A stretch of DNA of 56,903 nt, from the IMG/VR virus record IMGVR_UViG_3300035670_000254, positions 1-56,903 of that record; one strand, 5' to 3'. Of the stretch, positions 23,456 to 55,017 are shown piece after piece. The position numbers and the translations under genes were made by a program. The notes below the pieces were generated by a model. It was not told where the DNA came from and did no database searches. It saw nothing but the letters and a program-made list of their open reading frames with translations. Position 1 is the stretch's first letter; every line of letters begins with the position of its first letter. The DNA is from a virus (Duplodnaviria > Caudoviricetes).

Positions 23456-25420
23456 CTACTGATAACCCATCATTTCCAAATATTTATTGGCCTTAGCGAT
23501 GTAAACATCATGGTTGAGGTTTTCGGGAAACTCATCAGGTAACTCCATCATAGGAACACCACCAGCTGAGTTGGTTACCTTGTTACCGGAAGCTGCATAG
23601 ACCATTTCAGGATAATCCTCGGGACCATAATACCAGCGTACAACTTTCCCTAAATAGTCACCGTTACACACAGCCCCGCCTTTAACGGCGCGTACAACCG
23701 CAAACTTGCGTATATCTTTACACTTAGTGATTGTTTCTTCTACTGGTATATTATCCTTCAACTTAGCCCGAACAGCTTCAATAATAATTTCCCCGCTTGG
23801 GTTTTTAGACAGACCTGAGTCTGCAAACCAACCCTTGCATTTGAGCTTACCTTTATCATCTATCGCTACGTAGTTGTTAACGTTCGCAGAATAGAGCGCA
23901 CGATAGAAGTTGGATTCCATTTCAAATCCTGTTTGTTTCTCCCACCATTTGATAATTTGTTCGACCAGTGGTTCCTGCTCTTCGGGATAGTCAATAACAA
24001 TACCATCAGTGTTGGCAGATATAACAGGTATTCCCATCAGCTCGAAAGCTTCAATTAACATCAGCAAGGAAAGCTGACCTGTAATTGTTACCTGAATGAG
24101 TAGTTGCGGCGCATACAAGACTGACCACATTGAACCCAGCTTACCGAATGAACCGTTGATAACGATCTTCAGTGTTTGTGCTGTTTTCTTGTCACCAGTA
24201 TGTTTCGCGCGAACACGTCGATCTACAATCTTCTTATAGACGCGAAGGAATACTTCACCCAAATGCTCGGGGAATAAGCGTTGGCCAAGTATCACGCTCG
24301 GGTAATAAGAGGTAACGTCGATATCACGCTTCTTCCGGCCTTTTACATAATGGTGGCAGGCTTTTTCTTCAGTTGAGTGCAAACCACCAATACCCATCTG
24401 ATAACTTGCGTTACCGATATTGATGCGCAAGTTTTTTAGCTGCCAGGGTAGTTCAACAGAACCTTTTTCGCTAATGACGAAGTCGCATTTCTTAATCAAG
24501 TCAATAACGCTATTCATCAGCGGTGTCTGGTAAACTAGGAAGCGAGGCACGTTATATTTATATCTACGCCCTGGCTCCACCTTAGCACGCTGTACGCGCT
24601 TCCTCGTTATGCGCTGTATTTCGTGGCGTATAACATCCTCTGCGATTTGGGCATCCGAACGGGAACGAAGGTCAACACCGTATTCTTGTGACATGATCTC
24701 CCGAAGATGTATTTCATCTTGAAGCGACAAGTAAAGCGCTTCGGTAGCATCCAGGTCGTTGATACAGTAATGAAGAACTATTACCATATGGTTCCGCGTT
24801 AGCATCATGTTAGGCGGGAATGGTAAATCCTGAAGTCTCTTACGATGCAGACGGCCCGCACGTTGTTTCAATGAACCGCCAGCGGGTGCAACTTCCATGA
24901 CGTCAATGTGGTTAAGCTTCAGACGTTCCAGTTCTGCGTTTTTGAGTATGTCGCTTGGCCGCCAGTCTTCGGTAATGATACGATCGCTGGCTTCTTTAAG
25001 CTCTGCGTTAGTTGCACCAGCAAGGGCCAGAGTGAGAATAGGTTCGTCGTATCCTAAACCGTTATAGCTGATTAAGAGTACGTTATGAGCTACCCAACTT
25101 AACCATTCAACATTTAGTTCGCATCCCAGATACTTTTCAAAGTAGATTACTTTTTGAGTCAGGATATTTCGGAAAGCTATCAAGAAATAGTTAGGGTAAC
25201 ACTCGATATCGAAAACATGGGGTTCACCATTTTTAACAGCTTTGACTAGTTCTTCTTGACTATAGCGGTTATAAACAGCGCGCAAAGCTACCTCAAGGCC
25301 TGGCAGATAGTCAGGCCTTTCCCAGGTGCGTTCTGGGGGAGTTCGTTTAATTTTTTCTTTCTTAACTTTTGGAGGAGGCGGCAAGTCTTGCCAGAATAAT
25401 CCAATAGCATCAGTTCTCAT
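23456..25420 (-). CDS. DNA polymerase, family B
   Basis: Exo FDIE, YNGLGYD, YCINDL; pol DVTSYYPS, KIVINGSFGK, SANTDG. Confidence 0.92.
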   Translation of the reverse strand: MRTDAIGLFWQDLPPPPKVKKEKIKRTPPERTWERPDYLPGLEVALRAVYNRYSQEELVKAVKNGEPHVFDIECYPNYFLIAFRNILTQKVIYFEKYLGCELNVEWLSWVAHNVLLISYNGLGYDEPILTLALAGATNAELKEASDRIITEDWRPSDILKNAELERLKLNHIDVMEVAPAGGSLKQRAGRLHRKRLQDLPFPPNMMLTRNHMVIVLHYCINDLDATEALYLSLQDEIHLREIMSQEYGVDLRSRSDAQIAEDVIRHEIQRITRKRVQRAKVEPGRRYKYNVPRFLVYQTPLMNSVIDLIKKCDFVISEKGSVELPWQLKNLRINIGNASYQMGIGGLHSTEEKACHHYVKGRKKRDIDVTSYYPSVILGQRLFPEHLGEVFLRVYKKIVDRRVRAKHTGDKKTAQTLKIVINGSFGKLGSMWSVLYAPQLLIQVTITGQLSLLMLIEAFELMGIPVISANTDGIVIDYPEEQEPLVEQIIKWWEKQTGFEMESNFYRALYSANVNNYVAIDDKGKLKCKGWFADSGLSKNPSGEIIIEAVRAKLKDNIPVEETITKCKDIRKFAVVRAVKGGAVCNGDYLGKVVRWYYGPEDYPEMVYAASGNKVTNSAGGVPMMELPDEFPENLNHDVYIAKANKYLEMMGYQ

Positions 25421-26373
25421 GGTCTTTGTCCTACCAGTATGCCACGAAAATTTTTACCAAAGAATGTACACGGATTCGGATACAAAGTTAAGTCTGCGGT
25501 ATCCACATTGTTCTTAAGCAACATCAACATTTCTAAAGCATAGATGCCATGAACAGTTTCAGATTGCATGTTGTATGACGCACCTTCTGTTTCGTCTGCG
25601 TGGGTGCGAACAACTCCATTTTCGATATATACGCGCCCGTTATCCGTTGCAAACGGCTTCAGCTTCTCCAGGGCGTCAAACAACGTCGGGTCGATAGTTT
25701 GCGGATTGCTTTCCTGGCTTAACATCTTTTCAACTTGAACAGGCCATCCGTTTTCCATCAAGGTGCTACGCATCCAACAGCCCGACTCATAATGGAAAGT
25801 GATAGAATTTTCGGTTACCTGCGCTCGAACTGGAGTTTCTTTAATCTTAACCAGCGCTTCGACAGCATCAGAAGACAATACAACATCAAGAGGGAATGGG
25901 CTTCCAAACCAATATTGAGCAAGGCAGACGTTGTTGGTTGCAAATGCTGAACCTCCCTTAATAAGGACAGACATACTAAATCGCCTACTAGCATCAGAGC
26001 CGATAAAAGGACCCACAGTTTTAAGAGCGGTGATAAGTTCTGCTCCGTTAATCTCATACATTTCCCCTTCAGGGTCAACGTGCGCGCCGATTTTATCCGT
26101 ACAGGGTATATTGGCTTTAAACGCACCAGATTTAATATTTAACTTACCGTTTGCCAGCATAGTTAGCTGTGTTGCGCTTTCGCAGTTTGCTATAGCCTTT
26201 AGCATTGGGATAGCTTGCGGGGCGCACTCTAAGCTCAACGGGATAGGCGCAGCCATAGCAATGACACCATTAGTGGCCCGGACCATTCCCTCTTTGATCA
26301 AAAAGTGCGTAGTGCCTTCAACAAAGGCTCGCTTACCTACCGCAGATGATGCGAACTTGAGAGCGTCAAGCAT
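25417..26373 (-). CDS. DNA polymerase processivity clamp (DnaN/beta-like)
   Basis: Repeated ATNG/ATNN beta-clamp-type motifs; adjacent to PolB. Confidence 0.7.
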   Translation of the reverse strand: MLDALKFASSAVGKRAFVEGTTHFLIKEGMVRATNGVIAMAAPIPLSLECAPQAIPMLKAIANCESATQLTMLANGKLNIKSGAFKANIPCTDKIGAHVDPEGEMYEINGAELITALKTVGPFIGSDASRRFSMSVLIKGGSAFATNNVCLAQYWFGSPFPLDVVLSSDAVEALVKIKETPVRAQVTENSITFHYESGCWMRSTLMENGWPVQVEKMLSQESNPQTIDPTLFDALEKLKPFATDNGRVYIENGVVRTHADETEGASYNMQSETVHGIYALEMLMLLKNNVDTADLTLYPNPCTFFGKNFRGILVGQRP

Positions 26374-27143: not shown

Positions 27144-28067
27144 TCAGAACAACTCCATTATTTTTGGTTCGAAAACACGCGAATGTTTATCCTTGTTGAT
27201 GCGCTCTGCTATTTGCCGATAGCTCCACATGTTGAAGGTTGCGCGTGTTTCGTAAATTGTGGTCAAACGTTGTAAATCGAACCCCGACTCTTCAATAACT
27301 TGGTCTATATAAGCCCGCTCGAGGGGGTTGAGAGTAAGAACGTGCCTTCCGGCTTCGTGAATGGTGCCAGCTTTCTCTGAAACTCGATAAGGTACTCCGG
27401 TCGGGATGAACATCGATCCATAAGCTCCGAACTGAATCCAGGATGAAGAATCAACGGAATACCACGGGTATCTTTCCATGACTCGGACAGATGTGATACC
27501 GAAAGCATGGAACTTAGCTTTTGGACGTCCTGCACCGTCAATGATGTATTTTTCCCAGATACGATCGAGCCAGATGATAAGTTGCTCAACAGTTTTTCCG
27601 ACCATGCCGCCGAGTGTGATGTAGGGATATTTAGACATGTAATATTCAAGATATCTCTCATCCTCGCCGAAGTGAAAACAGGGTAGTGGAGTAACTCCTC
27701 TGGCTTCCATTTCATTTTGATTGCGCCAAGTCTGTAAGGGGTCGCCAATCCCATCAAGGACTGAAGCCATGATGACGCCGTCGTCTTTTCTGATGATATC
27801 TTCGTTTTCTTGAATGTAGCGACAATAGCCAGGTAGGCTGATCGTTGCTCCCATGTTCCAAGCAGAGAAAGCCCCTGAGTCAAGAAACACTTGAGCTCCG
27901 TCGGCTCGCATTTCATCAACGTATTTTTGGCGATTAACATAGTGATAGGATTCCAATATGTTGGGGATGGTATCCACAATTTCAGCTTCGCGTTCGTTCA
28001 GCTTCGGATACGTCGACTGACCCTTGCGAAAGCTGTTAGTATAAACCGCAGCAAGGTATAGATTCAT
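27144..28067 (-). CDS. dpdA: 7-deazaguanine DNA transglycosylase
   Basis: FLDSGAFSAW, LDGIGD, PCFHFGE, LGGMV, HAFG, SVDSSSW; adjacent to folE/que genes. Confidence 0.85.
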   Translation of the reverse strand: MNLYLAAVYTNSFRKGQSTYPKLNEREAEIVDTIPNILESYHYVNRQKYVDEMRADGAQVFLDSGAFSAWNMGATISLPGYCRYIQENEDIIRKDDGVIMASVLDGIGDPLQTWRNQNEMEARGVTPLPCFHFGEDERYLEYYMSKYPYITLGGMVGKTVEQLIIWLDRIWEKYIIDGAGRPKAKFHAFGITSVRVMERYPWYSVDSSSWIQFGAYGSMFIPTGVPYRVSEKAGTIHEAGRHVLTLNPLERAYIDQVIEESGFDLQRLTTIYETRATFNMWSYRQIAERINKDKHSRVFEPKIMELF

Positions 28068-28300
28068 GATTGCTCCACTAACTTAAACCAGGTTTCTACA
28101 CGCTCTTCAACAATGCGCTGGGCATTCTCAAACGTTTTGTAGGTATTACCCGTTTTCGGGAGTCCTGGCAACAGCATCGAAATGTTGAACTGAGTCTCGC
28201 CCGAAGCTTGCCAGCTAATTGCAGCTACTTTGATATTATTAATGTACGCCAGGCGAGCGTCACGAAATTTATGTTTACCTTCACGCCAAGTTAGCTTCAT
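28064..28300 (-). CDS. Hypothetical protein
   Basis: GGAG SD; coupled to dpdA start. Confidence 0.55.
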   Translation of the reverse strand: MKLTWREGKHKFRDARLAYINNIKVAAISWQASGETQFNISMLLPGLPKTGNTYKTFENAQRIVEERVETWFKLVEQS

Positions 28301-28314
28301 TTATTATCTCCAAT

Positions 28315-28336
28315 AAAAAAGGCCCCGTAGGGCCTT
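28315..28336 (-). terminator. Terminator after folE
   Basis: Minus strand AAGGCCC-TACG-GGGCCTTTTTT. Confidence 0.75.
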
Positions 28337-28357
28337 AGTATAACATACGACTTTATA

Positions 28358-29005
28358 TCATTTACAGGCTTCAAGAAACTCGCGACGCCATGTATCTGCT
28401 TCAAGGTAATGCTCAATGGTGCTAATATCCGTAGCTCCCCGGAAAGCTTTGGTAATCGTGCTGGAGCCGCAGGACTGTTTAACTCCGCGCGACTCCATGC
28501 ACATATGGCGAGCGTCGATGTAGACGCATACGGCCTTCGGTTGCAGGTGTTCGTTAATTGCATCTGCGATCTGGTTAGTCAGACGTTCCTGAACCTGGAG
28601 GCGGCGGGCAAAAGCGTCAACCACACGGCTCAATTTACTGAGCCCGACAATTTTACCGTTGGGCACATAACCCACTACCGCGCGACCGATGATGGGGGCC
28701 ATGTGATGTTCGCAATGGCTATAAACCGGGATATCACGAACGATAACCATTTCGTTGGTACCTTCTGCACCGTCTTCGAACACTTTGAACAGATCGGCGA
28801 TTTCAACTTTATAACCGCCGAACCAGGTTTCATAAGCTTTCGCGACACGATCAGGGGTTTCAATGAGGCCCGGGCGCAGAAGCATACCTTCAGAACCGCC
28901 TTCGATGATGTTCAGGATACCGCTGATATAATAAGCGATTTCGTCACGTTGAGGATTTTCGGAATCTGATTCTGCTTTAATACCGTTCAGTTTTAACTGT
29001 TCCAT
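28358..29005 (-). CDS. folE: GTP cyclohydrolase I
   Basis: GLIETPDRVAK, SHCEHHMAP, GLSKLSR, RRLQVQERLT, HMCMESRGV. Confidence 0.95.
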   Translation of the reverse strand: MEQLKLNGIKAESDSENPQRDEIAYYISGILNIIEGGSEGMLLRPGLIETPDRVAKAYETWFGGYKVEIADLFKVFEDGAEGTNEMVIVRDIPVYSHCEHHMAPIIGRAVVGYVPNGKIVGLSKLSRVVDAFARRLQVQERLTNQIADAINEHLQPKAVCVYIDARHMCMESRGVKQSCGSSTITKAFRGATDISTIEHYLEADTWRREFLEACK

Positions 29006-29577
29006 TATTTGCTGTACTCCACATGGCATTTAGAAGTTTCTTCGATGACGCATTTTACCAGCTCAACGCCATGTTCGGCAAGCAACATCGGGCCAATAAC
29101 GTCGACCATATGAGCGGCCAGGTTTTCAGCGGTAGGGTTGAAAGGCAGCGATACCAGCGAATTGAAGAAATGATTTTGATCATTTTCTGAGATGTACTCT
29201 GCCATTTCCTCTTCAAATTCCACCAGGGTTTTCAAACCATTGATCAGATCATCCTTTTCCCAATGCAGGAATTTATGATCCCAATTATCTTCCAGCCACT
29301 GGCAGAGTGTAGTCTTAACAACACTGAAGTCGATAACGCGACCAACATCGTCCAGCTTGGTACGATCGTTAACCGTCATGTTGCGGTAAGTCGGTTTAAA
29401 TCCTTGGCCCGGAATATGGGCAGCTTTACCCGTTGCGACCGCCACAGTTTTCATTTTCGGCGCGACGTGGAAGTGAAACACGTAATTGTGGCCATGCAGG
29501 TGGCGGCATTTGCTTTCGTGACCTACAACACGATGGCCCGCGCAAATTTCATGTGAACGAATAACTTTGTAAGACAT
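29005..29577 (-). CDS. queD: 6-carboxytetrahydropterin synthase
   Basis: AGHRV...CRHLHGHNY, IDFS, DHKFL, PTAENLA, EET. Confidence 0.9.
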   Translation of the reverse strand: MSYKVIRSHEICAGHRVVGHESKCRHLHGHNYVFHFHVAPKMKTVAVATGKAAHIPGQGFKPTYRNMTVNDRTKLDDVGRVIDFSVVKTTLCQWLEDNWDHKFLHWEKDDLINGLKTLVEFEEEMAEYISENDQNHFFNSLVSLPFNPTAENLAAHMVDVIGPMLLAEHGVELVKCVIEETSKCHVEYSK

Positions 29578-29617
29578 TTTATTTCTCCAGTTGAAGCCAT
29601 CCTTGGCTAGCCCGACA

Positions 29618-30103
29618 TTAGGCGACTGTTAAGCCGTTCCGTTTTCTGTTTTCGTAGATGACGTATAATAACGCCGAAGCAAAGAATTTGGAAAGGCTCA
29701 TTGCAAGGATAGATCCCCAGCTGGCATAGCCTATCATATGCAGGAAGATGAAGGAGTCTACCGGGACTGCGATCATAGAGCTGAACACGACCCGTTCATG
29801 GAACGGTTTTTTAGTGATCGTGAATATTGCATAGTCCAGCAGCTCGCTAACCGCGAAAGATGTCACAGACGCGACAACGACAACCGGGTCGCCCAGCCAG
29901 TAGCTAATTAAACAGGCCAGCGCTATAGCCCATAGGACGTGGTGGCCTGCGCTACGTTGCGCGTAGTCGCGTAGCACGAACACACAGCCCACGAAGAAAG
30001 CCATAAGCGGCACAGCGCCCAACGGCGTGGGCACGATTGGCAGGTAGCTGAAGCCCAGGTTTACGAACACAACCATTAAGAGGTAAGCGAAAATGAACTT
30101 CAT
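29618..30103 (-). CDS. yhhQ: PreQ0/preQ1 transporter (VUT/YhhQ family)
   Basis: Multi-TM; FVLRDYAQ, ASVTSFAVSELLD, PVDSFIF; within the que cluster. Confidence 0.75.
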   Translation of the reverse strand: MKFIFAYLLMVVFVNLGFSYLPIVPTPLGAVPLMAFFVGCVFVLRDYAQRSAGHHVLWAIALACLISYWLGDPVVVVASVTSFAVSELLDYAIFTITKKPFHERVVFSSMIAVPVDSFIFLHMIGYASWGSILAMSLSKFFASALLYVIYENRKRNGLTVA

Positions 30104-30780
30104 TTGTTTTTCTCCTGATGTTGGAAGAGAGCGCGTTCAACCGACGAAAGTATATCGATTAAATCTTGCTCGTAGGTTTTGTGACCGCGCTGACCAGGAG
30201 CTAAGATCTTTTTCAAAGCATGTTGCAGCGGGCCGGAGGTCACTTCATAACAATCAATCACGTCGTAAACATCAATGAAAACGCCGGGTTTGATTTCGCG
30301 CTTATATTTGTCGTTAGAGTAAAAAGGGCCAACGTCAGGCTCTAAGCCAGCCTTTTCAAGTTCTTCGCGGGTAAGAGGTTCTTTGCTAAAAACTTGATGG
30401 AATACTTCGTCAGCTTTCCACGGAGCATTGTCTGGATTAATTTTAATATCGGTCGCCCCGCTTGTGCTAACCCCAGGGCGAGAAGGAAATTCGCTAGCCA
30501 GTCGCCAGCGTTTAATCCCGTTCGGAGGTAAAGTTTCCAGTTCAGGAGAAGTATTATAAGTCGCTTTAATCTTAGCGTCGTTAATTTCAACATTCTCAAG
30601 AATGCTACCATTGACAGTTAAGATATCGAAGTTAAAACCCGCATCCCGCATAAGAGCAATGCACTCGTTGGATAGCTGCTGGCTCTGAACTCCACCGTTA
30701 TGAATAGAAACCCAACCTTCTACATCAACAATACCCTGTAAGCGGTCGCAATATCGAAGTAATGTTTCACGTCTACCCAT
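30100..30780 (-). CDS. Protein with C-terminal DUF3310-like domain
   Basis: IDVYDVIDCYEV...QHALKKILAPGQRGHK...QDL motif. Confidence 0.55.
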   Translation of the reverse strand: MGRRETLLRYCDRLQGIVDVEGWVSIHNGGVQSQQLSNECIALMRDAGFNFDILTVNGSILENVEINDAKIKATYNTSPELETLPPNGIKRWRLASEFPSRPGVSTSGATDIKINPDNAPWKADEVFHQVFSKEPLTREELEKAGLEPDVGPFYSNDKYKREIKPGVFIDVYDVIDCYEVTSGPLQHALKKILAPGQRGHKTYEQDLIDILSSVERALFQHQEKNK

Positions 30781-30817
30781 GATAATCTCCTAGGCGCATC
30801 CTTGCGCCCGCCAGTAA

Positions 30818-31558
30818 TTAGAATTTAAAAGGGTTATTTTCTACAAAGGCTGAAAAGCCTTTTTCACGAAGTTGGCAAGCAGGGCACTCGCCGCAGCCAT
30901 AGCCCCACACGTTGTCAGTAGTGTGGTCACCATTATAGCAGGTATGACTATCTTCCAGCACAACTGTCAGAAAATCGACTGCTTTAGCCAGTGCGAACGT
31001 TTCAGCTTTATTTAACCACATTAACGGCGTGGCAATCTCGATATTGGTCTGATAGCCGACGTTTAATGCTGTTTGAAGCAAACGAATAAACTCGTCGCGG
31101 CAATCAGGATAACCGCTGTAGTCGGTTTCGCAGACGCCAGTAATGAGCGTATCTGCACCAACTTTTTGAGCGTATGCGTGAGCTGTAGTTAAGAACAGCG
31201 CATTGCGGTTCGGTACAAAAGAGGCCGGAAGGTTGGAGTTCTGCGCGTGTTTAGCGCTAACGTCTTTTTGTTCGGTGCCGCGAATGAGCGCGCTATTGCC
31301 GATAGATTGCAGCGCAGGAATCGAAAACACGGTGAAGGGTACGTTGTGTTCTTCACAGATGCGCGCGGCGCAGTGGATTTCAACTTCGTGCTTTTGTCCG
31401 TAGACAAAACCAACAGCGTGAACAGTTTCAAAGTTGCGAAGGGCAAGGCCCAGGCAAGTTACGGAGTCCTGACCGCCAGACAGGACAACAACGGCGGATT
31501 TGCCCTTCACACTTTCAACAACGTTGTACACTTTTTCAGATGATACGTTCATAGTCAA
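30818..31558 (-). CDS. queC: 7-cyano-7-deazaguanine (preQ0) synthase
   Basis: SGGQDS, YGQKH, VPNRN, YPDCR, TCY...CGECPAC. Confidence 0.95.
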   Translation of the reverse strand: MTMNVSSEKVYNVVESVKGKSAVVVLSGGQDSVTCLGLALRNFETVHAVGFVYGQKHEVEIHCAARICEEHNVPFTVFSIPALQSIGNSALIRGTEQKDVSAKHAQNSNLPASFVPNRNALFLTTAHAYAQKVGADTLITGVCETDYSGYPDCRDEFIRLLQTALNVGYQTNIEIATPLMWLNKAETFALAKAVDFLTVVLEDSHTCYNGDHTTDNVWGYGCGECPACQLREKGFSAFVENNPFKF

Positions 31559-31562
31559 TACC

Positions 31563-31823
31563 TTATAAATGATCAGCGTATTTACGGCTCATTTCCGCAG
31601 CTTCATCAGCGGTGCGGTACGGGTTGCTAAATTGTTCAGCTTCATCAGTGAACACATAGCATACTTCTTCAGTACAAGGATCGCGGAGTTTATAAACCGG
31701 ACCGGCTTTTTCAACATCGCGCTCTTTAGTACAAACCAGGGCATCCTGACAACATGCTTCCTGAAGATCGTTCCAGGTCATGCCGCCAATTGCGCGGTTT
31801 TCGAACATATATTTTTCGCTCAC
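31563..31823 (-). CDS. Hypothetical protein in que cluster
   Basis: GGAG SD, fills the queE-queC gap. Confidence 0.55.
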   Translation of the reverse strand: MSEKYMFENRAIGGMTWNDLQEACCQDALVCTKERDVEKAGPVYKLRDPCTEEVCYVFTDEAEQFSNPYRTADEAAEMSRKYADHL

Positions 31824-31825
31824 GG

Positions 31826-32527
31826 TTACTCCACATTTAACAGTTTATGAATCTGAAGTTGAACGGTATAGTTAAACTTCATTGCACTTTCCAGGACCGC
31901 TGCAACGTTGTCGGCGTTATAGCCAGCGTCTTGCTCGTCCATCGGTTGCAGGTAGATTTTACCCTTAAATGACTTTGGAGGCCTCGCAATAAATGGCGTA
32001 GCTCGGTGATCAAGAGCTTGCAAGGGTAAACCGTCCTCCTGTCGCACGCTGTTAGCTTTTAAAACGTACTTAAAGGCGTTGGCCCGATGCAGGGCGCTCG
32101 GATGCAACTTAGCGGTTTTCGGCGAGCATACAACCGTGACCAACTGCGACAGCTCGAGAGGAATAGCCATGCTGCCGTTGGTTTCGATTTGCACGTCGAA
32201 ATCGTTTTCAATCAGGAAATCGCAGAAAGGAGTGATGTTCTGACGGAAAGGTTCGCCGCCGGAAATGACGATCAGGTTTGCGTTGCTGCGCGTTTCCATT
32301 TTCTGGTGATACACGTGGTCAAGAATATCGCCGTAGGTCATACGTTCGCGACCTTCAGTATATTCAGTATCACAACCAGGGCACTGGAGATTGCAGCCAG
32401 CAAGACGAACGAAAACAGCAGGGCGACCGCAGAAAGGGCCTTCACCTTGAATAGTGCTGAAAATGGAATGAACTTCGAGGGTAGATTGATAATCTTTCTT
32501 TTCGGGGGTCTGAGAGTTCAGCTTCAT
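31826..32527 (-). CDS. queE: 7-carboxy-7-deazaguanine synthase (radical SAM)
   Basis: IFSTIQGEG, RLAGCNLQCPGCDT, SGGEP, IETNG, SPK, QIHK. Confidence 0.95.
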   Translation of the reverse strand: MKLNSQTPEKKDYQSTLEVHSIFSTIQGEGPFCGRPAVFVRLAGCNLQCPGCDTEYTEGRERMTYGDILDHVYHQKMETRSNANLIVISGGEPFRQNITPFCDFLIENDFDVQIETNGSMAIPLELSQLVTVVCSPKTAKLHPSALHRANAFKYVLKANSVRQEDGLPLQALDHRATPFIARPPKSFKGKIYLQPMDEQDAGYNADNVAAVLESAMKFNYTVQLQIHKLLNVE

Positions 32528-32570
32528 GGTTTTATCCCTGTTTCCTAGGCGAGTGAGCCAGATTTTAGTC

Positions 32571-32601
32571 AAAAATAAAGCGCCCGAAGTGGGGCGCTTT
32601 T
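32571..32601 (-). terminator. Terminator
   Basis: AAAGCGCCC...GGGCGCTTT stem with flanking A/T runs. Confidence 0.7.
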
Positions 32602-33521: not shown

Positions 33522-34004
33522 CTAAGGTTTAAACGCTAATTGCATTGGATGTTTAAATTCGATAGCGCGCTTGGTGATTAACAGTTTAGCCGCATCCTCG
33601 GTACTAATGTCAATAGTCAAATTATCCCATAATCCTTCATCAAGGGATGGAACTTTCGCGCCGACTACAAAAGAACATAGACCTTGAATATCCCATTCAA
33701 TTGCATATTCAGCTTGAGCGGCAGCTTCGTTGAAGTTGAGTAAAGTCTCTTTAGCTTCATTCATCAAGTGAATAAGAATATACTCAAGATCAGAATATTC
33801 CCATTCGTCGGGAGGAGTTTCCAAGGTGATACCAATATAAAGCATCACCAGTTCATATTTCTGCCAGCCTTTAAACATACCAAATTCAAGAGGTAGTACC
33901 TCCTGGCATTCAGGGCAATTGATAATTCCCAGATGATGCAACGTCAAGAAATTGGGATGTTTGGCGATCAAATCATATTTGTCGCGATTAATTAACACGT
34001 ACAT
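33522..34004 (-). CDS. Hypothetical protein
   Basis: 160-aa ORF with AAGGTG SD. Confidence 0.55.
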   Translation of the reverse strand: MYVLINRDKYDLIAKHPNFLTLHHLGIINCPECQEVLPLEFGMFKGWQKYELVMLYIGITLETPPDEWEYSDLEYILIHLMNEAKETLLNFNEAAAQAEYAIEWDIQGLCSFVVGAKVPSLDEGLWDNLTIDISTEDAAKLLITKRAIEFKHPMQLAFKP

Positions 34005-34013
34005 AGTTTCACC

Positions 34014-35957
34014 TTAGAAAGGAATATCTTCATCAAAAGGCATATTAGCAGCAGGTGTCAAAACTTGGTAGCCATCAGTGCTAGCTGCGGATACTTCCTC
34101 ATGGTTATCTTGATCGTATACGTTTTGATAAGTTTCAGTCGAGCTAGATGACATGATGTTATCTTTCGTATAAACCTGAATACCGATATCAGGAACTACC
34201 GACTCAATAGTACCGAAACAAGTACCATCATAGCAAGAACGTAATACTTCGTAGAACTTACCATTTTTACGCGCCTTGATATGCGTTGGCACTTTTAACG
34301 ACGCGACTATTTCTAAAGCATCGTCAATAGTTGCAGGTAACGGTAAATTCGTCCTGTTCTTCCACCAGGTGTACGCCTTACGCCCTGCCCAATCGCTGTG
34401 CATTAAGCAGACAAATTCAGATATCGTTGTGTGACCACAATGATATGTTACTTTCAGCGTCGGCGGTTTAGTTGGGTCGTTGCGGTTAATGTTCTTCTGA
34501 TAAATTACGTTTTCTACTGTGAAGTCTTTAACTAAGGTTTTATCTTCCAGAGATTCTTTGATAAGCTTTTCGCTACTTGATGCAACTTTTAGCTTTTCTT
34601 TGAACTTAAAAGCAGCCCCGCAGAATCCATGTGGCACTTTTCCTTCAGCTGGGTCAACACCACCGCAGAAGCGCCAGGCAGGATATTGACCATCAGTTCC
34701 GCAAACTTCACATTCTTTATAAATACCAGGGCCGGAGCCTTTACGCCCAGGGCGACGCGGTACAGCAGGGTCGTTAATGGGTCCTAAGCGGCGGCTATTG
34801 CCGGAGAAGTCCAACACCAGGCAATCGTGTTTCGTGCTTGCTTGTATAGCCTCCAAGCGCTGTTCCCGCACGCTAATATCATACCCTGGCGCATAGTCCG
34901 GGCGCGTACCGCGGCCCAGCATTTGCACCCACAGGACAGTTGATTGAGTTGGGCGTAACATGATGATCATATCGATGCCCGGATAATCAAATCCCGTTGT
35001 CAGAACGTTATTGTTAGTAACAGCTCTGATGCGTCCTGCTTTGAAGTCAGCAATTATTCGGTCACGCTCCGCATCGGTCGTTTTACTATGAACAGCAGCC
35101 GCGCTGATTCCTTTTTCGTTGAGCATGTTGGCAACGTCAATGGCATGTTCAACGCCTGCACAGAACACCAGCCAGCTTTTACGGTCGGCACCTACTTCTA
35201 AAGCTTCGTTTAATGCGGCTTCGTTTGCTTCACGCTTGTTAACAGCGGTTTGAAGTTCAGCAGCAACAAACTCACCACCACGCTTTTTAACGCCATTAAC
35301 ATCAAGTTGAAAGCTGGTGCGTTTAGGCACAACGGGCAGGAGATAGCCTTCACTTATGAACCAGTTAAAGAAAGCTACTGAAGAGCCATCAAATACAATG
35401 TGGTCAAACATTGCATCAATACCCTCTTCAAGGTCTCCTTCCATGCGGGTAATAGGTCCGAAGCCTAAGCGATATGGAGTGGCTGTTAAGCCTATCACTT
35501 TTAAATAAGGGTTAACCTTTTTTAGTTCTTTGAAAAAGAGATTATATGATGTCGCTTCTTTTGGGCTTATCATATGACATTCGTCGACCATGACAATATC
35601 GACTTTACCAAAGAGCTGTGCCTTTTTAGCTACAGACTGGATGCCTGCAAAGATAATTTGATGATTGGTATTTTTCTTCTTTAAGCCTGAGCTATAAATG
35701 CCAGCAGGTGCTTCAGGCCAAAGATTCATCATTTTTTCATGGTTCTGTGCGATCAGTTCTTTAACGTGCGTTAACAGCATCGCTTTCTGGCCAGGATACC
35801 ATTCCAGAAGCAAACGAAAGAACTCCGCGATAACAAGGCTTTTACCAGTGCCAGTAGGCAACACCACCACAGGGTCGCCGGAGGCTGACTTGTATTTATC
35901 AAAATAGCGAAAAATGCTGTAAACCGCTTCAGTTTGATAGTCACGAAGTTTGTACAT
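34014..35957 (-). CDS. SF2 helicase (RadD/UvsW-like) with Zn-binding Cys and SSB-like acidic tail
   Basis: LRDYQ, PTGTGKS, DECH, TATP, LTTGFD, QMLGRGTR; C-terminus PFDEDIPF. Confidence 0.9.
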   Translation of the reverse strand: MYKLRDYQTEAVYSIFRYFDKYKSASGDPVVVLPTGTGKSLVIAEFFRLLLEWYPGQKAMLLTHVKELIAQNHEKMMNLWPEAPAGIYSSGLKKKNTNHQIIFAGIQSVAKKAQLFGKVDIVMVDECHMISPKEATSYNLFFKELKKVNPYLKVIGLTATPYRLGFGPITRMEGDLEEGIDAMFDHIVFDGSSVAFFNWFISEGYLLPVVPKRTSFQLDVNGVKKRGGEFVAAELQTAVNKREANEAALNEALEVGADRKSWLVFCAGVEHAIDVANMLNEKGISAAAVHSKTTDAERDRIIADFKAGRIRAVTNNNVLTTGFDYPGIDMIIMLRPTQSTVLWVQMLGRGTRPDYAPGYDISVREQRLEAIQASTKHDCLVLDFSGNSRRLGPINDPAVPRRPGRKGSGPGIYKECEVCGTDGQYPAWRFCGGVDPAEGKVPHGFCGAAFKFKEKLKVASSSEKLIKESLEDKTLVKDFTVENVIYQKNINRNDPTKPPTLKVTYHCGHTTISEFVCLMHSDWAGRKAYTWWKNRTNLPLPATIDDALEIVASLKVPTHIKARKNGKFYEVLRSCYDGTCFGTIESVVPDIGIQVYTKDNIMSSSSTETYQNVYDQDNHEEVSAASTDGYQVLTPAANMPFDEDIPF

Positions 35958-35958
35958 G

Positions 35959-36879
35959 TTATTTACCGTAGTAATTAGCCATCGTATAGTTCGGGCAAGC
36001 CGCTATCTGCTCGTCAGTGGTTAGTGTAGCATTTACGGCAGCATTACGACAGAACCAAGTGCCATCCTCACGGGCAATAGAATAAGCGCAAGTTCGGCAA
36101 CTTACAGCGGGTATTTCTTTTCTGTAACAGAAGTCAGCATAGTCGCACCATTTGCATTCATACCAACCAGCACCTTTCTCGCTCAAGCCAACAGGCGGCT
36201 CATCAGCTAATACAATCTTAACGCCCCGGTGAATAAATTGATCTGCCACCACGCTATCTAAAGGAATGAGTTCTAAATAAAGCTCATCATTATTTTTGTT
36301 GACAGCGATGTAGAGGCATACACTAAAACCCATTTTGCGCATGTAGACTTGAACTTGCGCGTAGTGCATAGGTTTAGATTCTCTCACACCACTCTTAAGT
36401 AGCTTTTGAAAGCTTTTATCAGCGTGAGTTTTCATTTCAGCCAGAATAGGCATTGAAGGGTCTTGAAGATCAGGACAGCCTATAACTACCCCATCGATAG
36501 CAGAACCAAAATGACCGCCCAGCTCTGAAATACGATATTGGTTTCCGTTTGCATCTTGTTGATAAACAGTCAGACCTGCTGCAAGCAAGGCGGCAATGAA
36601 GCGACCTTCTTCCATGTGCCCGCGATTGAATAGACGTAACAGCTGAGCATTGTGACGCGGTTTACTAACCCATCGGAAGTTGAAGAAAAGTTTACGTGCG
36701 CAAGGGTCACCAATAGTGGATACGCCAAGATGAGAACGTCTACCGGTGCGAGGGTCAAAGGCATCGCTAATAGTTGGTATAACACGACCCAACCATTCAC
36801 GGTATTTAGATCCCTGATCTTCTTCAATCTTATCGTTGATCAGTTGTTTTGTTTTTGTAGCAAGGTAAACAGGCATCAT
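35959..36879 (-). CDS. Cas4-like PD-(D/E)xK exonuclease
   Basis: S.IGDPC.R, IDG, EMKT, QVQVYM, CKWC..C, CRTC. Confidence 0.8.
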   Translation of the reverse strand: MMPVYLATKTKQLINDKIEEDQGSKYREWLGRVIPTISDAFDPRTGRRSHLGVSTIGDPCARKLFFNFRWVSKPRHNAQLLRLFNRGHMEEGRFIAALLAAGLTVYQQDANGNQYRISELGGHFGSAIDGVVIGCPDLQDPSMPILAEMKTHADKSFQKLLKSGVRESKPMHYAQVQVYMRKMGFSVCLYIAVNKNNDELYLELIPLDSVVADQFIHRGVKIVLADEPPVGLSEKGAGWYECKWCDYADFCYRKEIPAVSCRTCAYSIAREDGTWFCRNAAVNATLTTDEQIAACPNYTMANYYGK

Positions 36880-36935: not shown

Positions 36936-37874
36936 TTACTGCTGCCACGGCGGCAGTTGTGCCTGTGCCGGGTGAGGAGGTTCCGCCGCCGGTTGTTCCT
37001 GCTGCGGCGCCTGAAGTTGTTGCGGTGCCGGGGTAGCAGTCTGCTGAGCCCACGGCGGTGGAATAGCTGCGCCAGCGGCAGGTGCCGTTTGTTCAACCGG
37101 GGCTTGCGGCTGTTGCGGCTGTTCTACCGGAGCGGGCTGCTGTACCTGCTGGACCGGAGGCTGGACAGGCTGTTGAACCGGAGCCTGTGGCTGCTGTACA
37201 GGCGCTTGCGGCTGCTGTTGTGCGGAAGTGTCCCACGGCTGAGCGCCGCCCCAGGGTTGTTGAACCGGCTGCTGTACAGGTTGCTGAACCGGCGGCTGTT
37301 GAACCGGAGGAGTCATCGGCTGTACCGGAGCCTGAGGTTGAACAGGCGGTTGCATCGGCGGCTGCTGGACCGGAGCTTGCATCGGAGGTTGCATCGGAGC
37401 GCCAGGGAAAGCGCCACCAGGAACCGCACCAGCACCGGGAACAGTAGGCTGAACAGCCAGCGCACGCTGAACGTTGATAGAGTCATAACCGTTCGGCTGG
37501 TTACGATCTTCATAGTCAGAACCTTCCGGCGCTTTTTCGACTTTCAGTTTGACGTGAAAAGGTTTTTCGTGAAGTTGTTCAGTTGCGTTCCAACGCGGGA
37601 CGCCGACAGCCATAGACAGCGCTGCGAGTTGTTCGTGACCGATGCGCACTGCATCTTCGCTGGTCGGGTGAACGACGTTATAGCTCAGGAAAATTTTGCG
37701 GCCTTTAGCAAAAGCCGGCTCGAGGATTTCACCGACGAAGGCTAACATCTGGCCTTTATTGGCGGTAGTTTTTGCTTCAGATTCAATCAGCTTCGCCTTA
37801 TACCAACCTTTAGGCAGAGCGTCCATGTTCATGGTTGACGCATGTTGACTGGCGTCGAAGTTAAATTGTGCCAT
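36936..37874 (-). CDS. Single-stranded DNA-binding protein (DUF669-like) with long Pro/Gln tail
   Basis: ALPKGWYKA...GRKIF N-domain; next to Sak4; PPWQQ end. Confidence 0.7.
   Translation of the reverse strand: MAQFNFDASQHASTMNMDALPKGWYKAKLIESEAKTTANKGQMLAFVGEILEPAFAKGRKIFLSYNVVHPTSEDAVRIGHEQLAALSMAVGVPRWNATEQLHEKPFHVKLKVEKAPEGSDYEDRNQPNGYDSINVQRALAVQPTVPGAGAVPGGAFPGAPMQPPMQAPVQQPPMQPPVQPQAPVQPMTPPVQQPPVQQPVQQPVQQPWGGAQPWDTSAQQQPQAPVQQPQAPVQQPVQPPVQQVQQPAPVEQPQQPQAPVEQTAPAAGAAIPPPWAQQTATPAPQQLQAPQQEQPAAEPPHPAQAQLPPWQQ
36945..37440 (-). repeat. Low-complexity QPPVQQ/QAPVQQ coding repeats
   Basis: Recurrent TTGAACCGG / CTGTAC / GGCTG units on the + strand. Confidence 0.7.
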
Positions 37875-38608
37875 TATTGATTACCTTTTGCCTTGATCTT
37901 GTTGATGATATAACCCAGGTGGGGAAACTCAAACTCATTGAGTACACCCGACCGATCTTTTGCACTGTCGTTCAAACCAGGCTGCGTTTGCAACATACGT
38001 GTCTTAGCGCCGTCTTGACCAGTTACGATCTGATAACGGAAAACTTCATCAAACAAGTACGGCAATTGCGGCCCCAGCTTCTGGCCGGGCATTGAAGGCC
38101 CCCACAGTAACTGGCCAGTAAGTTCGTCTTTATCTTTACCCATTTTGGCAGACATGTAAACATGTTTACCTTTGATGTCACGGAATTTTTTAATTAAGTC
38201 CATGACCTCATCCTGCATTTCACCATACGCCTTACGCGGGTCTTTGTTCAGCGGTTTAAAGTGAGCCAGTATTTTTTCAGCCATCTCAGACAAGGAGTCA
38301 AGAGCTACTGAGTCGAAATATTGCTGACTGTCAGGATGAACAACCCACTGGTAGGCTTCACGAAGCTGTTCCAATGTGGTTACCTGAATAGTCAGAATAT
38401 TATCGCTAAAGGGCAAACCAGTCGGACCGAAAATCCGTTCAACGTTTTCTTTACGCAGGGAGAGCAAGCCTGATTCAGCGCTAATTAATACCGGGCGAGG
38501 AAGCGTAGCGACCAGGACAGTCTTACCAACACCAGCATCGGAGTAAGTAAGAATTTTAACGCCCGAGTCTTCAACGATCTGCTGTGTGTACATCAGCTCG
38601 ATAGCCAT
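37874..38608 (-). CDS. Sak4-like ssDNA annealing ATPase (AAA_24)
   Basis: YSDAGVGKT, ISAESGL, VALDSLSE, FDEVF, AKDRSG. Confidence 0.85.
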   Translation of the reverse strand: MAIELMYTQQIVEDSGVKILTYSDAGVGKTVLVATLPRPVLISAESGLLSLRKENVERIFGPTGLPFSDNILTIQVTTLEQLREAYQWVVHPDSQQYFDSVALDSLSEMAEKILAHFKPLNKDPRKAYGEMQDEVMDLIKKFRDIKGKHVYMSAKMGKDKDELTGQLLWGPSMPGQKLGPQLPYLFDEVFRYQIVTGQDGAKTRMLQTQPGLNDSAKDRSGVLNEFEFPHLGYIINKIKAKGNQ

Positions 38609-39046: not shown

Positions 39047-39980
39047 CGTCGTCCTCCGGAGGAAGAATATCATTGATATCGCGCCACGATAAGAAACGGG
39101 CTTGACGCGGTTTATCTTTCACACCTTTAGGGAAGTGACGAAACTTGACAATCATTTCATTTTCGATTGCCTCGTGACGTGTTTCCCAGAGATGGATACG
39201 TTCTGCGTGAGTTAGCTTACCAGGTCCGATACGCGCATACTCGCCATTATCAAGACGACGCACCATAAGAGGGCCAGCCATTCCTTTGCCGACTTTATTT
39301 TCTTTATGCGTGCTGCGTTTGGTGAGACCCTGGGCATCGGTAAAAGCCTCATTTAAATTCTCCTCTGCTTCAAATACATCAATGAGAACGCCTTCCGTAT
39401 CTTCATACGGTTTACGTCGAGTATATCCCGATTCACGGGCGGTACTGCGGCCCCATTTATAAACCGCTTTCAGGTCGCGCTGGATTAAACCTTCGTAACC
39501 CATCTCAAGCCAGCGTTCTTCCCACTCGAGAAGTTCTTCCTCGTTGTTAACGATTTCCAGGGGAACAACTTTTAGATCGAGAAGCTTACCTAAGCCGTGT
39601 TGAAACTCTATCCAGTTCTTTAACATGGCATAGCGTTCTTCATACGGCTTATTTGAAACGTTCGGTTCGCACAAATCGAAAACGTGCCATACCACTGTAG
39701 GTTCACCTTCGTGACTCATTACAGCAGAAACTGTTTTGCGGCAAAGATCATCGTCAGTTTCAATACCGCAAGCTAACTCACCGTCAAAACCCCGATAAGC
39801 TTCACCACTGAAGTTTTCACGGGTAAAACGGTTCGGCATGAACGCTAGCGTTCGCGTTAGCAATGTGCCATAAGGATTAAGAGCGCGAACGCCGTCAATC
39901 TTAGGCATAACCCCGCAAGGATATTTCACCTTTGACAAATCAGTGTCACAGGCCCGGTAAGCCCGGAATTGTTTACCCAT
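39039..39980 (-). CDS. ATP-dependent DNA ligase
   Basis: KIDGVR, FDGEL, VFD, GYEGL motifs. Confidence 0.9.
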   Translation of the reverse strand: MGKQFRAYRACDTDLSKVKYPCGVMPKIDGVRALNPYGTLLTRTLAFMPNRFTRENFSGEAYRGFDGELACGIETDDDLCRKTVSAVMSHEGEPTVVWHVFDLCEPNVSNKPYEERYAMLKNWIEFQHGLGKLLDLKVVPLEIVNNEEELLEWEERWLEMGYEGLIQRDLKAVYKWGRSTARESGYTRRKPYEDTEGVLIDVFEAEENLNEAFTDAQGLTKRSTHKENKVGKGMAGPLMVRRLDNGEYARIGPGKLTHAERIHLWETRHEAIENEMIVKFRHFPKGVKDKPRQARFLSWRDINDILPPEDDDE

Positions 39981-40512
39981 GAACTTTACCTCGTTTAGTT
40001 GATCGCAAATAGTTTGTTTTACGCCTAAAAGGTTTAGGCATTTCTGATGTAGTGCTTAAGATGGTATCCCGCTTTAAACGCATTTGGCGCAGAGCTGCTA
40101 AATCGCAAAGGTTTTGCGCCCGGGTGCGCCTGTCCGTCCCCTTTGTATGCCCTGGTACGTGCTTATACGTTGCAACGTATCCGCCGCTTTTAAGCAGCCC
40201 GAGAATGTACTCGCAAGCGTTTTGAATTTGATCGCAATAAGGCTTCTTTTCACCGCTGAGGATTTTAATTGCCGTATCGCTGTCAGACTGAATTAATAGT
40301 CTGTCTCCTTCAACAATAAGATTATGACGAATACCATGATAGAGAGCGTTACCGATAGCCATAAGTTCTGCGACATTATTATCGGAAGGGTCACGCAAAG
40401 GACCTTCGAAGGATTTAGAGCCATTAGACCCTGCTATCCAGATTCCGTAGCCTGCGGCTTTAGTTTGGTTGCAGTAAGAAGCATCGGCAATGATAGTGAC
40501 TAAGTTACGCAT
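39973..40512 (-). CDS. Ribonuclease HI
   Basis: IADAS, NNVAELMA, QSDS, HVPGH, NxxCD. Confidence 0.85.
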   Translation of the reverse strand: MRNLVTIIADASYCNQTKAAGYGIWIAGSNGSKSFEGPLRDPSDNNVAELMAIGNALYHGIRHNLIVEGDRLLIQSDSDTAIKILSGEKKPYCDQIQNACEYILGLLKSGGYVATYKHVPGHTKGTDRRTRAQNLCDLAALRQMRLKRDTILSTTSEMPKPFRRKTNYLRSTKRGKVHG

Positions 40513-54088: not shown

Positions 54089-54521
54089 AGAACTGAAGCA
54101 TCAGACGCAGCCCACGCCGATGAGCTGCGTTTGCACCTGCCTGGCTATGCTGATGGACTGTCCTGCACAAGAAGTGATCGATAAGTATCATCGCGATTAC
54201 TTTGAATTGCAGGTGACAGAAGTTCATCACATCCTCTCGCATGAGGGTTTCATTTACAAACAGGGCATGGCGGGCCAGGTTTTGCCGCTCCTTCCCGGGG
54301 CGCTGTATCTGCTCACTGTAGCTAGCCTTAACATCCCCGGTGGCTTGCACCAAGTGCTGGTCGATTATCGCGACGAGGCCCTCCCTGTAGTGCTGGACCC
54401 GGCGAAAGGCTATAAGGGCCGCAAGTATTACACGTTCGACACGATCGAAGCCGACAGCGTAGAGCAAGCTTTCGTGCTTTCCAGCTGGATTATTGACTAC
54501 ACTATCACTGACAGAGGTTAA
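54078..54521 (+). CDS. Peptidase C39-like cysteine protease
   Basis: HQTQPTPMSCVCTCLAM (Q...C), LHQVLVD (H), VLDP (D). Confidence 0.65.
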   Translation: MISKELKHQTQPTPMSCVCTCLAMLMDCPAQEVIDKYHRDYFELQVTEVHHILSHEGFIYKQGMAGQVLPLLPGALYLLTVASLNIPGGLHQVLVDYRDEALPVVLDPAKGYKGRKYYTFDTIEADSVEQAFVLSSWIIDYTITDRG

Positions 54522-54522
54522 T

Positions 54523-55017
54523 ATGACTGCATTGGCATGGGATGGAAAGGTATTAGCTGCTGATACACAGTACGACCAGGGCGGCCACAGAGGTCACAGC
54601 TCTAAACTGAGCGTCATCAATCACCCGATCATTGGTAAAATGATGGTCGCGCTGTGCGGTAGCGTTCGTGGCTCCAGTCTGATGATTGATCAGCTGGAAA
54701 GCAATACGGTTGCGAAAGTGAACGATTATGATGTTACTTGCGTTTACGGTATCGGCGTTGATTCCGGAAAGAATGTTTATAACATCTACGGCGATGGCTA
54801 TTGCGTAATTGAAGATAGACGCAATCGATTCATGGCGAGCGGGTCGTGCTACGAATTTCTTTATGGTGCAATGTTTGCAGGTCTCTCCGCTGGTGAAGCA
54901 ATTGAGCTCGCGATTGAACACCGTACGGACGCAGGCAACATCTGTGAAACGCTGGTTTGGTCTGAAGTCTTCAAAGGCTACGAAAATGAAAGATATCACG
55001 AAGATCCTCCCTACTAA
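54523..55017 (+). CDS. Ntn-hydrolase (HslV/proteasome-beta-like) peptidase
   Basis: N-terminal M-T-ALAWDG..LAADTQ, SKL, ASGS, GAM..G.SA.EAI..A. Confidence 0.7.
   Translation: MTALAWDGKVLAADTQYDQGGHRGHSSKLSVINHPIIGKMMVALCGSVRGSSLMIDQLESNTVAKVNDYDVTCVYGIGVDSGKNVYNIYGDGYCVIEDRRNRFMASGSCYEFLYGAMFAGLSAGEAIELAIEHRTDAGNICETLVWSEVFKGYENERYHEDPPY

Follow-up and report, generated by a model that had tools for sequence, protein, structure and literature searches.

An SSB-Ct-type tip on the RadD-family helicase of a Queuovirinae-type phage and its alternative carriers in related replication-recombination modules

In bacterial genome maintenance, the C-terminal tip (SSB-Ct) of SSB, the protein that binds single-stranded DNA, serves as the central address label, read by well over twelve enzymes. 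C-terminal docking tails also occur in phage T7, where those of gp2.5 and gp4 are interchangeable. The subject of this work is an SSB-Ct-type tip located at the end of a RadD-family superfamily 2 (SF2) helicase, encoded in IMG/VR record IMGVR_UViG_3300035670_000254. The whole record, a complete virus of 56,903 bp with direct terminal repeats, was analysed and is referred to as the window. Readers of the SSB-Ct named in PMC10238739 are exonuclease I, RecO, RecQ, chi, PriA, PriC, RNase HI and RadD. In E. coli RadD the tip binds a pocket of the first RecA-like motor domain (RD1) framed by Arg21, Arg49 and Arg145; SSB or the tip peptide stimulates the ATPase ~3-fold, and reversal of any of the three arginines abolishes stimulation by SSB (PMC10238739).

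Several described systems resemble the arrangement in the window. E. coli RadD is a full-length homologue of the window helicase (from the motor domains through the four-Cys Zn ribbon to the C-terminal domain), but has 586 aa and ends ~13 residues past the last aligned position without linker or tip, and two of the arginines with which it reads the SSB-Ct are not kept in the phage protein. T7 gp4 is a phage helicase with an acidic, Phe-terminated C-terminal docking tail, as T7 gp2.5 also has (PMC12339929); however, gp4 is a hexameric DnaB-like helicase-primase whose tail is not like the host SSB-Ct, whereas the window helicase is RadD-like and its tip copies the bacterial consensus. Phage HK620 encodes Sak4 beside an SSB of the DUF669 family, as the window does, and the last six residues of that SSB (NDYPPF), a C-terminal P-aromatic tip, are essential for Sak4 to bind SSB-coated single-stranded DNA (ssDNA) and for annealing to be stimulated (PMC5928155). 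In HK620 it is the SSB that carries the tip, whereas the window SSB ends LPPWQQ and the acidic tip is on the helicase. A second DUF669 protein shown to be an SSB is Gp63 of Pseudomonas phage Phi47; in the ‘Healer’ system it promotes the recombination carried out by Gp64, an AAA protein, and affinity purification coupled to mass spectrometry with Gp63 as bait enriched the neighbouring helicase Gp60, the Cas4 exonuclease Gp61 and Gp64 (PMC13687109). The same source describes P/Q-rich C-termini for phage DUF669 proteins and DDDIPF for those of prophages. The Healer module, in which helicase and Cas4 exonuclease co-purify with the SSB, is the same as that of the window, but the available text of PMC13687109 mentions a tip neither on the helicase nor on any other carrier. 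Likewise, the literature searched, to the extent that the sources were available, yielded no account of a phage RadD-type helicase with an SSB-Ct tip, or of carrier exchange. Motif and display are those of the SSB-Ct. What is new is the protein that carries them: a helicase of RadD type here, and in relatives a Zn-ribbon protein or a clamp-like factor. Both halves of the arrangement have precedents, in the tips on DUF669 SSBs (HK620 and prophages) and in the acidic Phe-terminated helicase tail of T7 gp4.

The helicase and its parts were assigned as follows from an alignment to E. coli RadD, an AlphaFold2 (AF2) model with its predicted local distance difference test (pLDDT) values, and the homologues described below.

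34014..35957, minus strand: RadD-family SF2 helicase, open reading frame (ORF) of 647 aa, stop codon at 34014-34016
34788..35957, minus strand: RecA-like motor domains RD1 and RD2, ~aa 1-390 (alignment to RadD 3-359; pLDDT 90-98)
34128..34787, minus strand: Zn-ribbon and C-terminal domains, ~aa 391-610 (invariant Cys, AF2 secondary structure, pLDDT)
34044..34127, minus strand: low-complexity acidic linker SSSSTETYQNVYDQDNHEEVSAASTDGYQVLTPAAN, ~aa 611-638 (translation, low pLDDT)
34017..34043, minus strand: SSB-Ct-type tip MPFDEDIPF, aa 639-647 (sequence and homologue conservation)

The reverse complement of 34014-34046 reads AAT ATG CCT TTT GAT GAA GAT ATT CCT TTC TAA and translates as N-M-P-F-D-E-D-I-P-F-stop. 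A first-pass annotation of this DNA had described a helicase ending in a linker followed by MPFDEDIPF, which is borne out by the sequence and by the ORF translation. Seven of the nine tip positions are identical to the E. coli SSB tip MDFDDDIPF, and, like a bacterial SSB-Ct, the helicase tail has an [ILV]-P-F end with a free carboxylate, an acidic run before it and a disordered linker. In the AF2 monomer model, built from a 113-row alignment (mean pLDDT 88.1), the body is confident to about residue 610 and residues 617-647 are modelled as disordered with pLDDT <50. Unlike the bacterial SSB-Ct, the tip is carried by a monomer-type SF2 helicase and not by an OB-fold SSB tetramer, and is therefore not displayed on ssDNA-bound SSB arrays. 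Among the 268 six-frame ORFs of at least 50 aa in the whole window, no other acidic x-P-F C-terminus was present.

Whether the tail is conserved was assessed in the best 120 matches from a 90%-clustered protein collection, the search of which gave 7,710 proteins with E <=1e-20 among 8,000 candidates scored. It is kept: 115 of the 120 end in [ILVM]-P-F, 79 in DIPF, 46 in DDDIPF and 13 in DFDDDIPF, with PMDFDDDIPF terminating several close homologues. The last 10 residues contain a mean of 3.7 acidic and 0.2 basic residues. Exceptions to [ILVM]PF are restricted to five homologues, P0033 (…DEAPW), P0075 (…DNIPM), P0049, P0107 and P0119. Given this frequency, and the conservation of P646 and F647 at 90% or above in the 113-row helicase alignment, the tip is not a chance ending. 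The linker before it differs in both length and sequence among homologues. SSB tails are built in this way, with a short conserved motif at the end of a linker that is variable and disordered.

Further features of these C-termini were observed. A second, internal copy of the tip lies ~20-30 residues upstream of the end in P0052 and P0084 (DDDIPFD) and in P0103 (DDDIPFG), and similar copies are visible in P0044, P0055 and P0078, and also in P0124. The internal copy is always followed by Asp or Gly, as if Asp replaced the terminal carboxylate. Several homologues are oversized. One of 995 aa (P0020) likely contains an intein, given the presence of Hom_end/LAGLIDADG Pfam domains, and the others (P0124-P0128, P0133, P0153, P0178 and P0246; 800-1583 aa) either are extended by ~340-380 residues at the N-terminus or match in several stretches. 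For the helicase of one related locus (L003), the possibility that a host ssb gene had recently donated the tail was considered and rejected, as the last 105 nt returned nothing significant from 5,426 E. coli genomes. The only match, inside the ssb gene of four genomes (46 nt, 80.4% identity, E 0.3), would be explained by the same peptide being encoded with similar codons.

The carrier itself is assigned as a clear RadD homologue of the SF2 helicases. The ORF has Pfam matches to ResIII, Helicase_C and DEAD and a PHROG match to phrog_16, “DNA helicase”. In a phmmer search of PDB chains, residues 2-387 aligned to residues 3-359 of E. coli RadD (6jde_B, E 1.9e-64), and residues 538-577 matched RadD 533-573 weakly. 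Foldseek with the AF2 model placed RadD chains at ranks 1-8 (E 5e-36 to 2e-34, 628-648 columns) ahead of the best non-RadD entry at E 1e-15, and no UvsW structure was among the first 50 matches listed. The RadD chains superpose on the model with TM scores of 0.45-0.53 and an rmsd of ~19 Å, which fits different domain orientations. Cys416, Cys419, Cys431 and Cys446 are invariant in the 113-sequence alignment and correspond to the zinc ribbon of RadD described in PMC9049331. Past the RadD-like end, the model contains an extra short beta-hairpin (aa 591-606).

To compare the placement of the tip between genomes, IMG/VR was scanned for relatives of the locus; 579 were found and the best 80 loci retained. 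These contain 74 complete helicases of at least 450 aa, of which 33 are tip-bearing and 41 tip-less (35 versus 41 where the window and Klebsiella phage vB_Ko_K4PH164 are included). An alternative carrier was defined as any other same-strand ORF of at least 50 aa ending in an acidic [ILVM]PF. Such a carrier was present nearby in 22/41 loci with a tip-less helicase and in 0/33 with a tip-bearing one (Fisher p = 7e-8). Restriction to loci with at least 1.5 kb of downstream sequence gave 21/37 versus 0/29 (Fisher p 1.5e-7).

The 22 carriers consist of 17 small proteins, four clamp-like proteins and a 55-aa ORF, 6 kb away, that is probably spurious. Small carriers are 65-114 aa long with a CxxC…C…PP…C pattern and the ending …EW..[DE]IPF; 14 of the 17 start within ~85 nt before or right at the helicase stop, and the remaining three start 349-626 nt after it. 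An 18th (L048), beside a split helicase ORF, was excluded from the count. Measured as stop-to-stop frames, all 18 (L012, L018, L029, L032, L035, L048, L050, L051, L054, L058, L062, L063, L064, L066, L070, L071, L078 and L081) have 62-114 aa and acidic IPF or VPF ends, and the four that were scanned (L029, L050, L070 and L081) all match phrog_23504, of unknown function. Several of the small-carrier ORFs are in a different frame from the helicase and overlap its stop by 13-82 nt. The four clamp-like carriers have 355-384 aa from the first start codon and end in DDIPF or DEIPF; the three that were scanned (L047, L049 and L069) match phrog_947, “DNA polymerase processivity factor”. They are located at the following positions of their loci.

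L047, 4733-5887: tip-bearing clamp-like factor
L069, 9623-10774: tip-bearing clamp-like factor
L079, 3081-4247: tip-bearing clamp-like factor
L049, 6945-8012: tip-bearing clamp-like factor

Named phages place the tip on a comparable range of proteins. The helicase of phage 9g ends …PPDFDDDIPF, in which DFDDDIPF is exactly the last eight residues of E. coli SSB, and that of Seurat ends …DDPDYVPF. In FtMidnight the helicase is tip-less and the processivity factor gp24 (L086, 8046-9116) ends …DPDKDIPF. The shorter helicases of Streptococcus phage CHPC577 and Listeria phage LP-P111 are also tip-less, and their DUF669 SSBs end …EIDLPF and …ENDLPF respectively. In two more distant relatives, Mycobacterium phage Rosebush (gp50) and Paenibacillus phage Dragolir, neither the helicase nor the adjacent ORFs that were examined bore a tip. 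The C-terminus of Streptococcus mutans SsbA is DDDLPF (PMC5143411), and in these few cases the choice of I or L in the phage tip follows the host group. Taken together, the distribution looks like one SSB-type tip per replication-recombination module with interchangeable carriers. Because of this, the suggestion of the first-pass annotation that the interaction hub has moved onto the helicase gains comparative support, the tip being placed in a complementary manner on helicase, small protein, clamp or, in Firmicute phages and prophages, the DUF669 SSB.

Beyond close relatives the tip is patchy. An exhaustive search of 50%-identity representatives gave 29,216 matches at E <=0.001; among the top 150 (38-54% identity), 24 end in [ILVM]PF and most of the other 126 stop straight after the conserved C-terminal domain (…RVWVNKKYPE…). 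A FastTree phylogeny of 217 helicases was calculated from the first 520 residues, thereby excluding the tip columns. Its rows were representatives of 500-700 aa, every sixth of the close homologues P0001-P0120 and the complete helicases of the loci, with any row shorter than 500 or longer than 700 aa, whether intein-bearing, fused or truncated, left out. Because the 71 tip-bearing leaves require at least 17 state changes, compared with a mean of 59.9 and a minimum of 45 in 500 label shuffles, the trait is taken to be inherited, yet with numerous gains or losses.

The genome in the window is that of a Queuovirinae-type phage. By tblastn its helicase is matched best in K4PH164 (74.0%) and Enterobacter phage EC151 (73.4%), followed by Seuratvirus (~56%) and Nonagvirus (~48%), and the closest cultured relatives infect enterobacteria. 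A bacterial-type SSB is absent insofar as PF00436 has no match anywhere in the 56.9-kb record. The helicase is the last of four minus-strand genes, in the order Sak4-like AAA_24 ATPase, DUF669 SSB, Cas4-domain exonuclease and helicase, an order identical in K4PH164.

37874..38608, minus strand: Sak4-like AAA_24 ssDNA-annealing ATPase, 244 aa (Pfam PF13479; phrog_124)
36936..37874, minus strand: DUF669 single-strand DNA-binding protein, 312 aa (Pfam PF05037, E 8e-11; phrog_13350 and phrog_6015)
36945..36953, minus strand: P-P-W motif of the DUF669 tail, aa 308-310, followed by QQ-stop (kept in IMG/VR loci)
35959..36879, minus strand: Cas4-domain (PD-(D/E)XK) exonuclease, 306 aa, directly upstream of the helicase (phrog_1990, E 6e-107)

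The DUF669 SSB consists of a domain of ~aa 1-125 followed by a P/Q-rich tail that terminates ...AQLPPWQQ. It had been annotated as ending PPWQQ, as its ORF translation confirms, and as lacking an SSB-Ct peptide. The latter is correct, the acidic tip being absent, but the protein has a tail motif of its own: in 63/63 DUF669 ORFs of the IMG/VR loci the final 20 residues include P-x0-1-W, its Trp being followed by 2-14 residues, and exact PPW is present in 56 of 65 when the window and K4PH164 are included. Being internal and non-acidic, PPW is unlike the SSB-Ct tip. By analogy with HK620, it may be this lineage's version of the Sak4-directed motif.

With moderate confidence, the helicase tip is interpreted as a trans-acting docking tag that serves the module as a whole. 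The motif, its disordered context, its conservation and the mutual exclusivity of its carriers are direct observations, from which binding in trans and the identity of the bound partner are inferred. The helicase would act as a member of the Sak4 - DUF669 SSB - Cas4 exonuclease - helicase recombination/replication module, its folded body presenting a disordered acidic linker of ~30 residues and an SSB-Ct-type tip, D-E-D-I-P-F, with a free carboxylate. This portable peptide would connect the helicase, and through it the entire module, to pockets made for the bacterial SSB C-terminus. The module's own DUF669 SSB bears P-P-W and not an acidic tip, so that another member would supply the acidic one. 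The most likely readers would be host SSB-interacting proteins, which the near-identity to the host tip and the tracking of host group by the I/L choice favour. Phage proteins are possible readers on grounds of analogy, namely Sak4 from HK620, the polymerase from the T7 gp4 tail, and the phage's own RNase H as a homologue of a known SSB-Ct reader. A complex prediction of the Sak4-like ATPase (53-row alignment) with helicase residues 598-647 scored 0.00 and 0.00 against a mark of 0.32, without controls, and speaks neither for nor against. The candidate phage readers outside the four-gene module, and the clamp-like factor beside the polymerase, are located as follows.

39973..40512, minus strand: RNase H, 179 aa, candidate tip reader (Pfam PF00075; phrog_531)
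23456..25420, minus strand: phage DNA polymerase, 654 aa, candidate tip reader by analogy to T7 (phrog_1252, E 4e-216)
25417..26373, minus strand: clamp-like DNA polymerase processivity factor, 318 aa, tip-less with the ending GILVGQRP (phrog_947)

A number of points weigh against a module-level docking tag. In 19 of the 41 loci with a tip-less helicase no alternative carrier is present in the available sequence, and Acinetobacter phage D0 has no tip carrier in 13.6 kb; one tip per module is therefore not universal, or the carriers lie further off. The figure of 17 changes is a minimum obtained with FastTree on 520 columns, and the topology is uncertain. The reader of the tip is a matter of pure inference. 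In some E. coli phages the tip has diverged from that of the host (DDPDYVPF in Seurat, PDPDVPF in locus L004), making host pockets less expected as readers, and a phage with a polymerase, primase, ligase, RNase H and exonuclease of its own would have no obvious need of any particular host partner. Finally, that the small tip-bearing gene is tightly linked to its helicase neighbour would fit a helicase-directed role equally well.

Such a role is the substance of the alternative closest to the docking tag, in which the helicase's own RD1 pocket, of RadD type, has the tip as its ligand, in cis or between molecules, and the ATPase would be switched on without a tip-bearing SSB; in tip-less relatives the ligand would arrive in trans from the adjacent small protein, the clamp or the DUF669 SSB. 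This is considered possible but doubtful. The helicase is a clear homologue of an enzyme that is stimulated through this pocket, and 16 of the 22 alternative carriers start within ~85 nt of the helicase stop. The pocket retains its hydrophobic positions (I15, F16, F19, F46, I121 and I155), and K153, equivalent to Arg145, and K58, beside the Arg49 position, are K/R in nearly all 217 helicases, tip-bearing or not. However, of the three pocket arginines, each essential in RadD, Arg21 is replaced by Asp20 and Arg49 by Leu51 in the window, at positions where basic residues are not conserved, and only Arg145, as Lys153, stays basic, although nearby residues could substitute for those lost. Pocket residues are also alike in the 71 tip-bearing and 146 tip-less helicases. 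The positions that are K/R-enriched in tip-bearing helicases (226, 457, 526, 389 and 112) are confounded by relatedness. A near-host tip such as DFDDDIPF, found in 13 of the 120 close homologues, would be unneeded for a phage-internal pair, the HK620 pair making do with NDYPPF. The intramolecular docking raised by the first-pass annotation is not supported either by the AF2 model from 113 rows, which leaves the disordered residues 617-647 undocked, although this is weak evidence. A broader reading, held only tentatively, combines this activation with the docking role: a movable, single-copy SSB-Ct cassette would be both an activator of the helicase pocket and a plug into the host SSB interactome, beside a separate PPW code. 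The non-acidic P-P-W of the DUF669 SSB would then address partners internal to siphophage replication-recombination modules, and the cassette would have hopped repeatedly among the RadD-type helicase, the small Zn-ribbon protein, the sliding-clamp-like factor and the SSB.

The remaining alternatives to a docking tag acting in trans on SSB-Ct pockets are less probable. Coupling as in T7 would have the acidic Phe-terminated tail dock onto the phage polymerase, or polymerase and clamp, joining helicase and polymerase at the fork. The C-terminal tail peptide DTDF of gp4 is bound to the polymerase in PDB 6P7E (PMC12339929), the window encodes its own polymerase and clamp-like factor ~8.6 kb downstream of the helicase, and the clamp-like factor bears the tip in some relatives. 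This is nevertheless judged improbable, as the helicase is of the RadD-type SF2 class within a recombination module and not a hexameric replicative enzyme, and neither a small Zn-ribbon protein nor, in phages that replicate by other systems, the DUF669 SSB would be expected to bear a polymerase-directed tip. A decoy, by which the tip competes with host SSB and so sequesters or inhibits its partners (exonucleases or restart proteins, for example), would explain why the sequence is nearly that of the host, and the two copies in P0052, P0084 and P0103 would raise avidity. Against this, a stoichiometric decoy must be abundant, for which a 647-aa enzyme is a costly carrier, and the alternative carriers are all replication/recombination proteins of the same module, which fits recruitment to a DNA-bound complex better; a decoy is accordingly given a still smaller chance. 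Least plausible, and scarcely credited here, is a tail that does not dock at all and functions either as a C-terminal degradation tag or as an acidic DNA mimic shielding the DNA-binding surface of the helicase. The LPF of S. mutans SsbA suffices for ClpXP-dependent degradation in some strains, but E. coli ClpXP did not degrade GFP-DDDLPF (PMC5143411), and the closest cultured relatives of this phage have enterobacterial hosts. Acidic phage SSB tails such as that of gp2.5 do fold back on DNA-binding grooves (PMC12339929), yet a DNA mimic needs acidity and not the strict [ILVM]-P-F end of 115 in 120 homologues, and no fold-back is seen in the AF2 model.

An ATP-dependent ligase, RusA and a large primase are also encoded in the window, and the gene directly after the helicase is listed below.

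33522-34004, minus strand: ORF of 160 aa, function unknown, directly after the helicase (phrog_7864; CPEC motif)

This ORF is tip-less, though it occupies the place of the small tip-bearing proteins of relatives. A 7-deazaguanine DNA-modification set lies on the minus strand at 27144-32572, with FolE, QueD, QueC and a radical-SAM QueE-like protein identified by Pfam at 28358-32572. Within it, a 307-aa ORF (27144-28067) is without a Pfam match, and the counterpart position in K4PH164 is annotated ‘queuine tRNA-ribosyltransferase’. An HslV-family peptidase on the plus strand (54493-55017; phrog_1040, 174 aa) ends ...ERYHEDPPY, an acidic P-P-aromatic C-terminus that recalls the tip of the HK620 SSB.

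The distribution of the tip amounts to a natural experiment on whether the peptide switches on RadD-type helicases. It is also relevant to the DUF669/Sak4 ‘Healer’ recombination system, which is in use for phage genome editing, as the helicase that co-purifies with Healer would appear to bear a docking peptide so far not considered. Were the cassette with its separate PPW code to prove correct, even a phage whose SSB is non-canonical could make use of the SSB-dependent enzymes of its host, or blind them. More generally, a tip on phage proteins other than SSB provides a testable handle on how phages with non-canonical SSBs join or interfere with the host SSB interactome.

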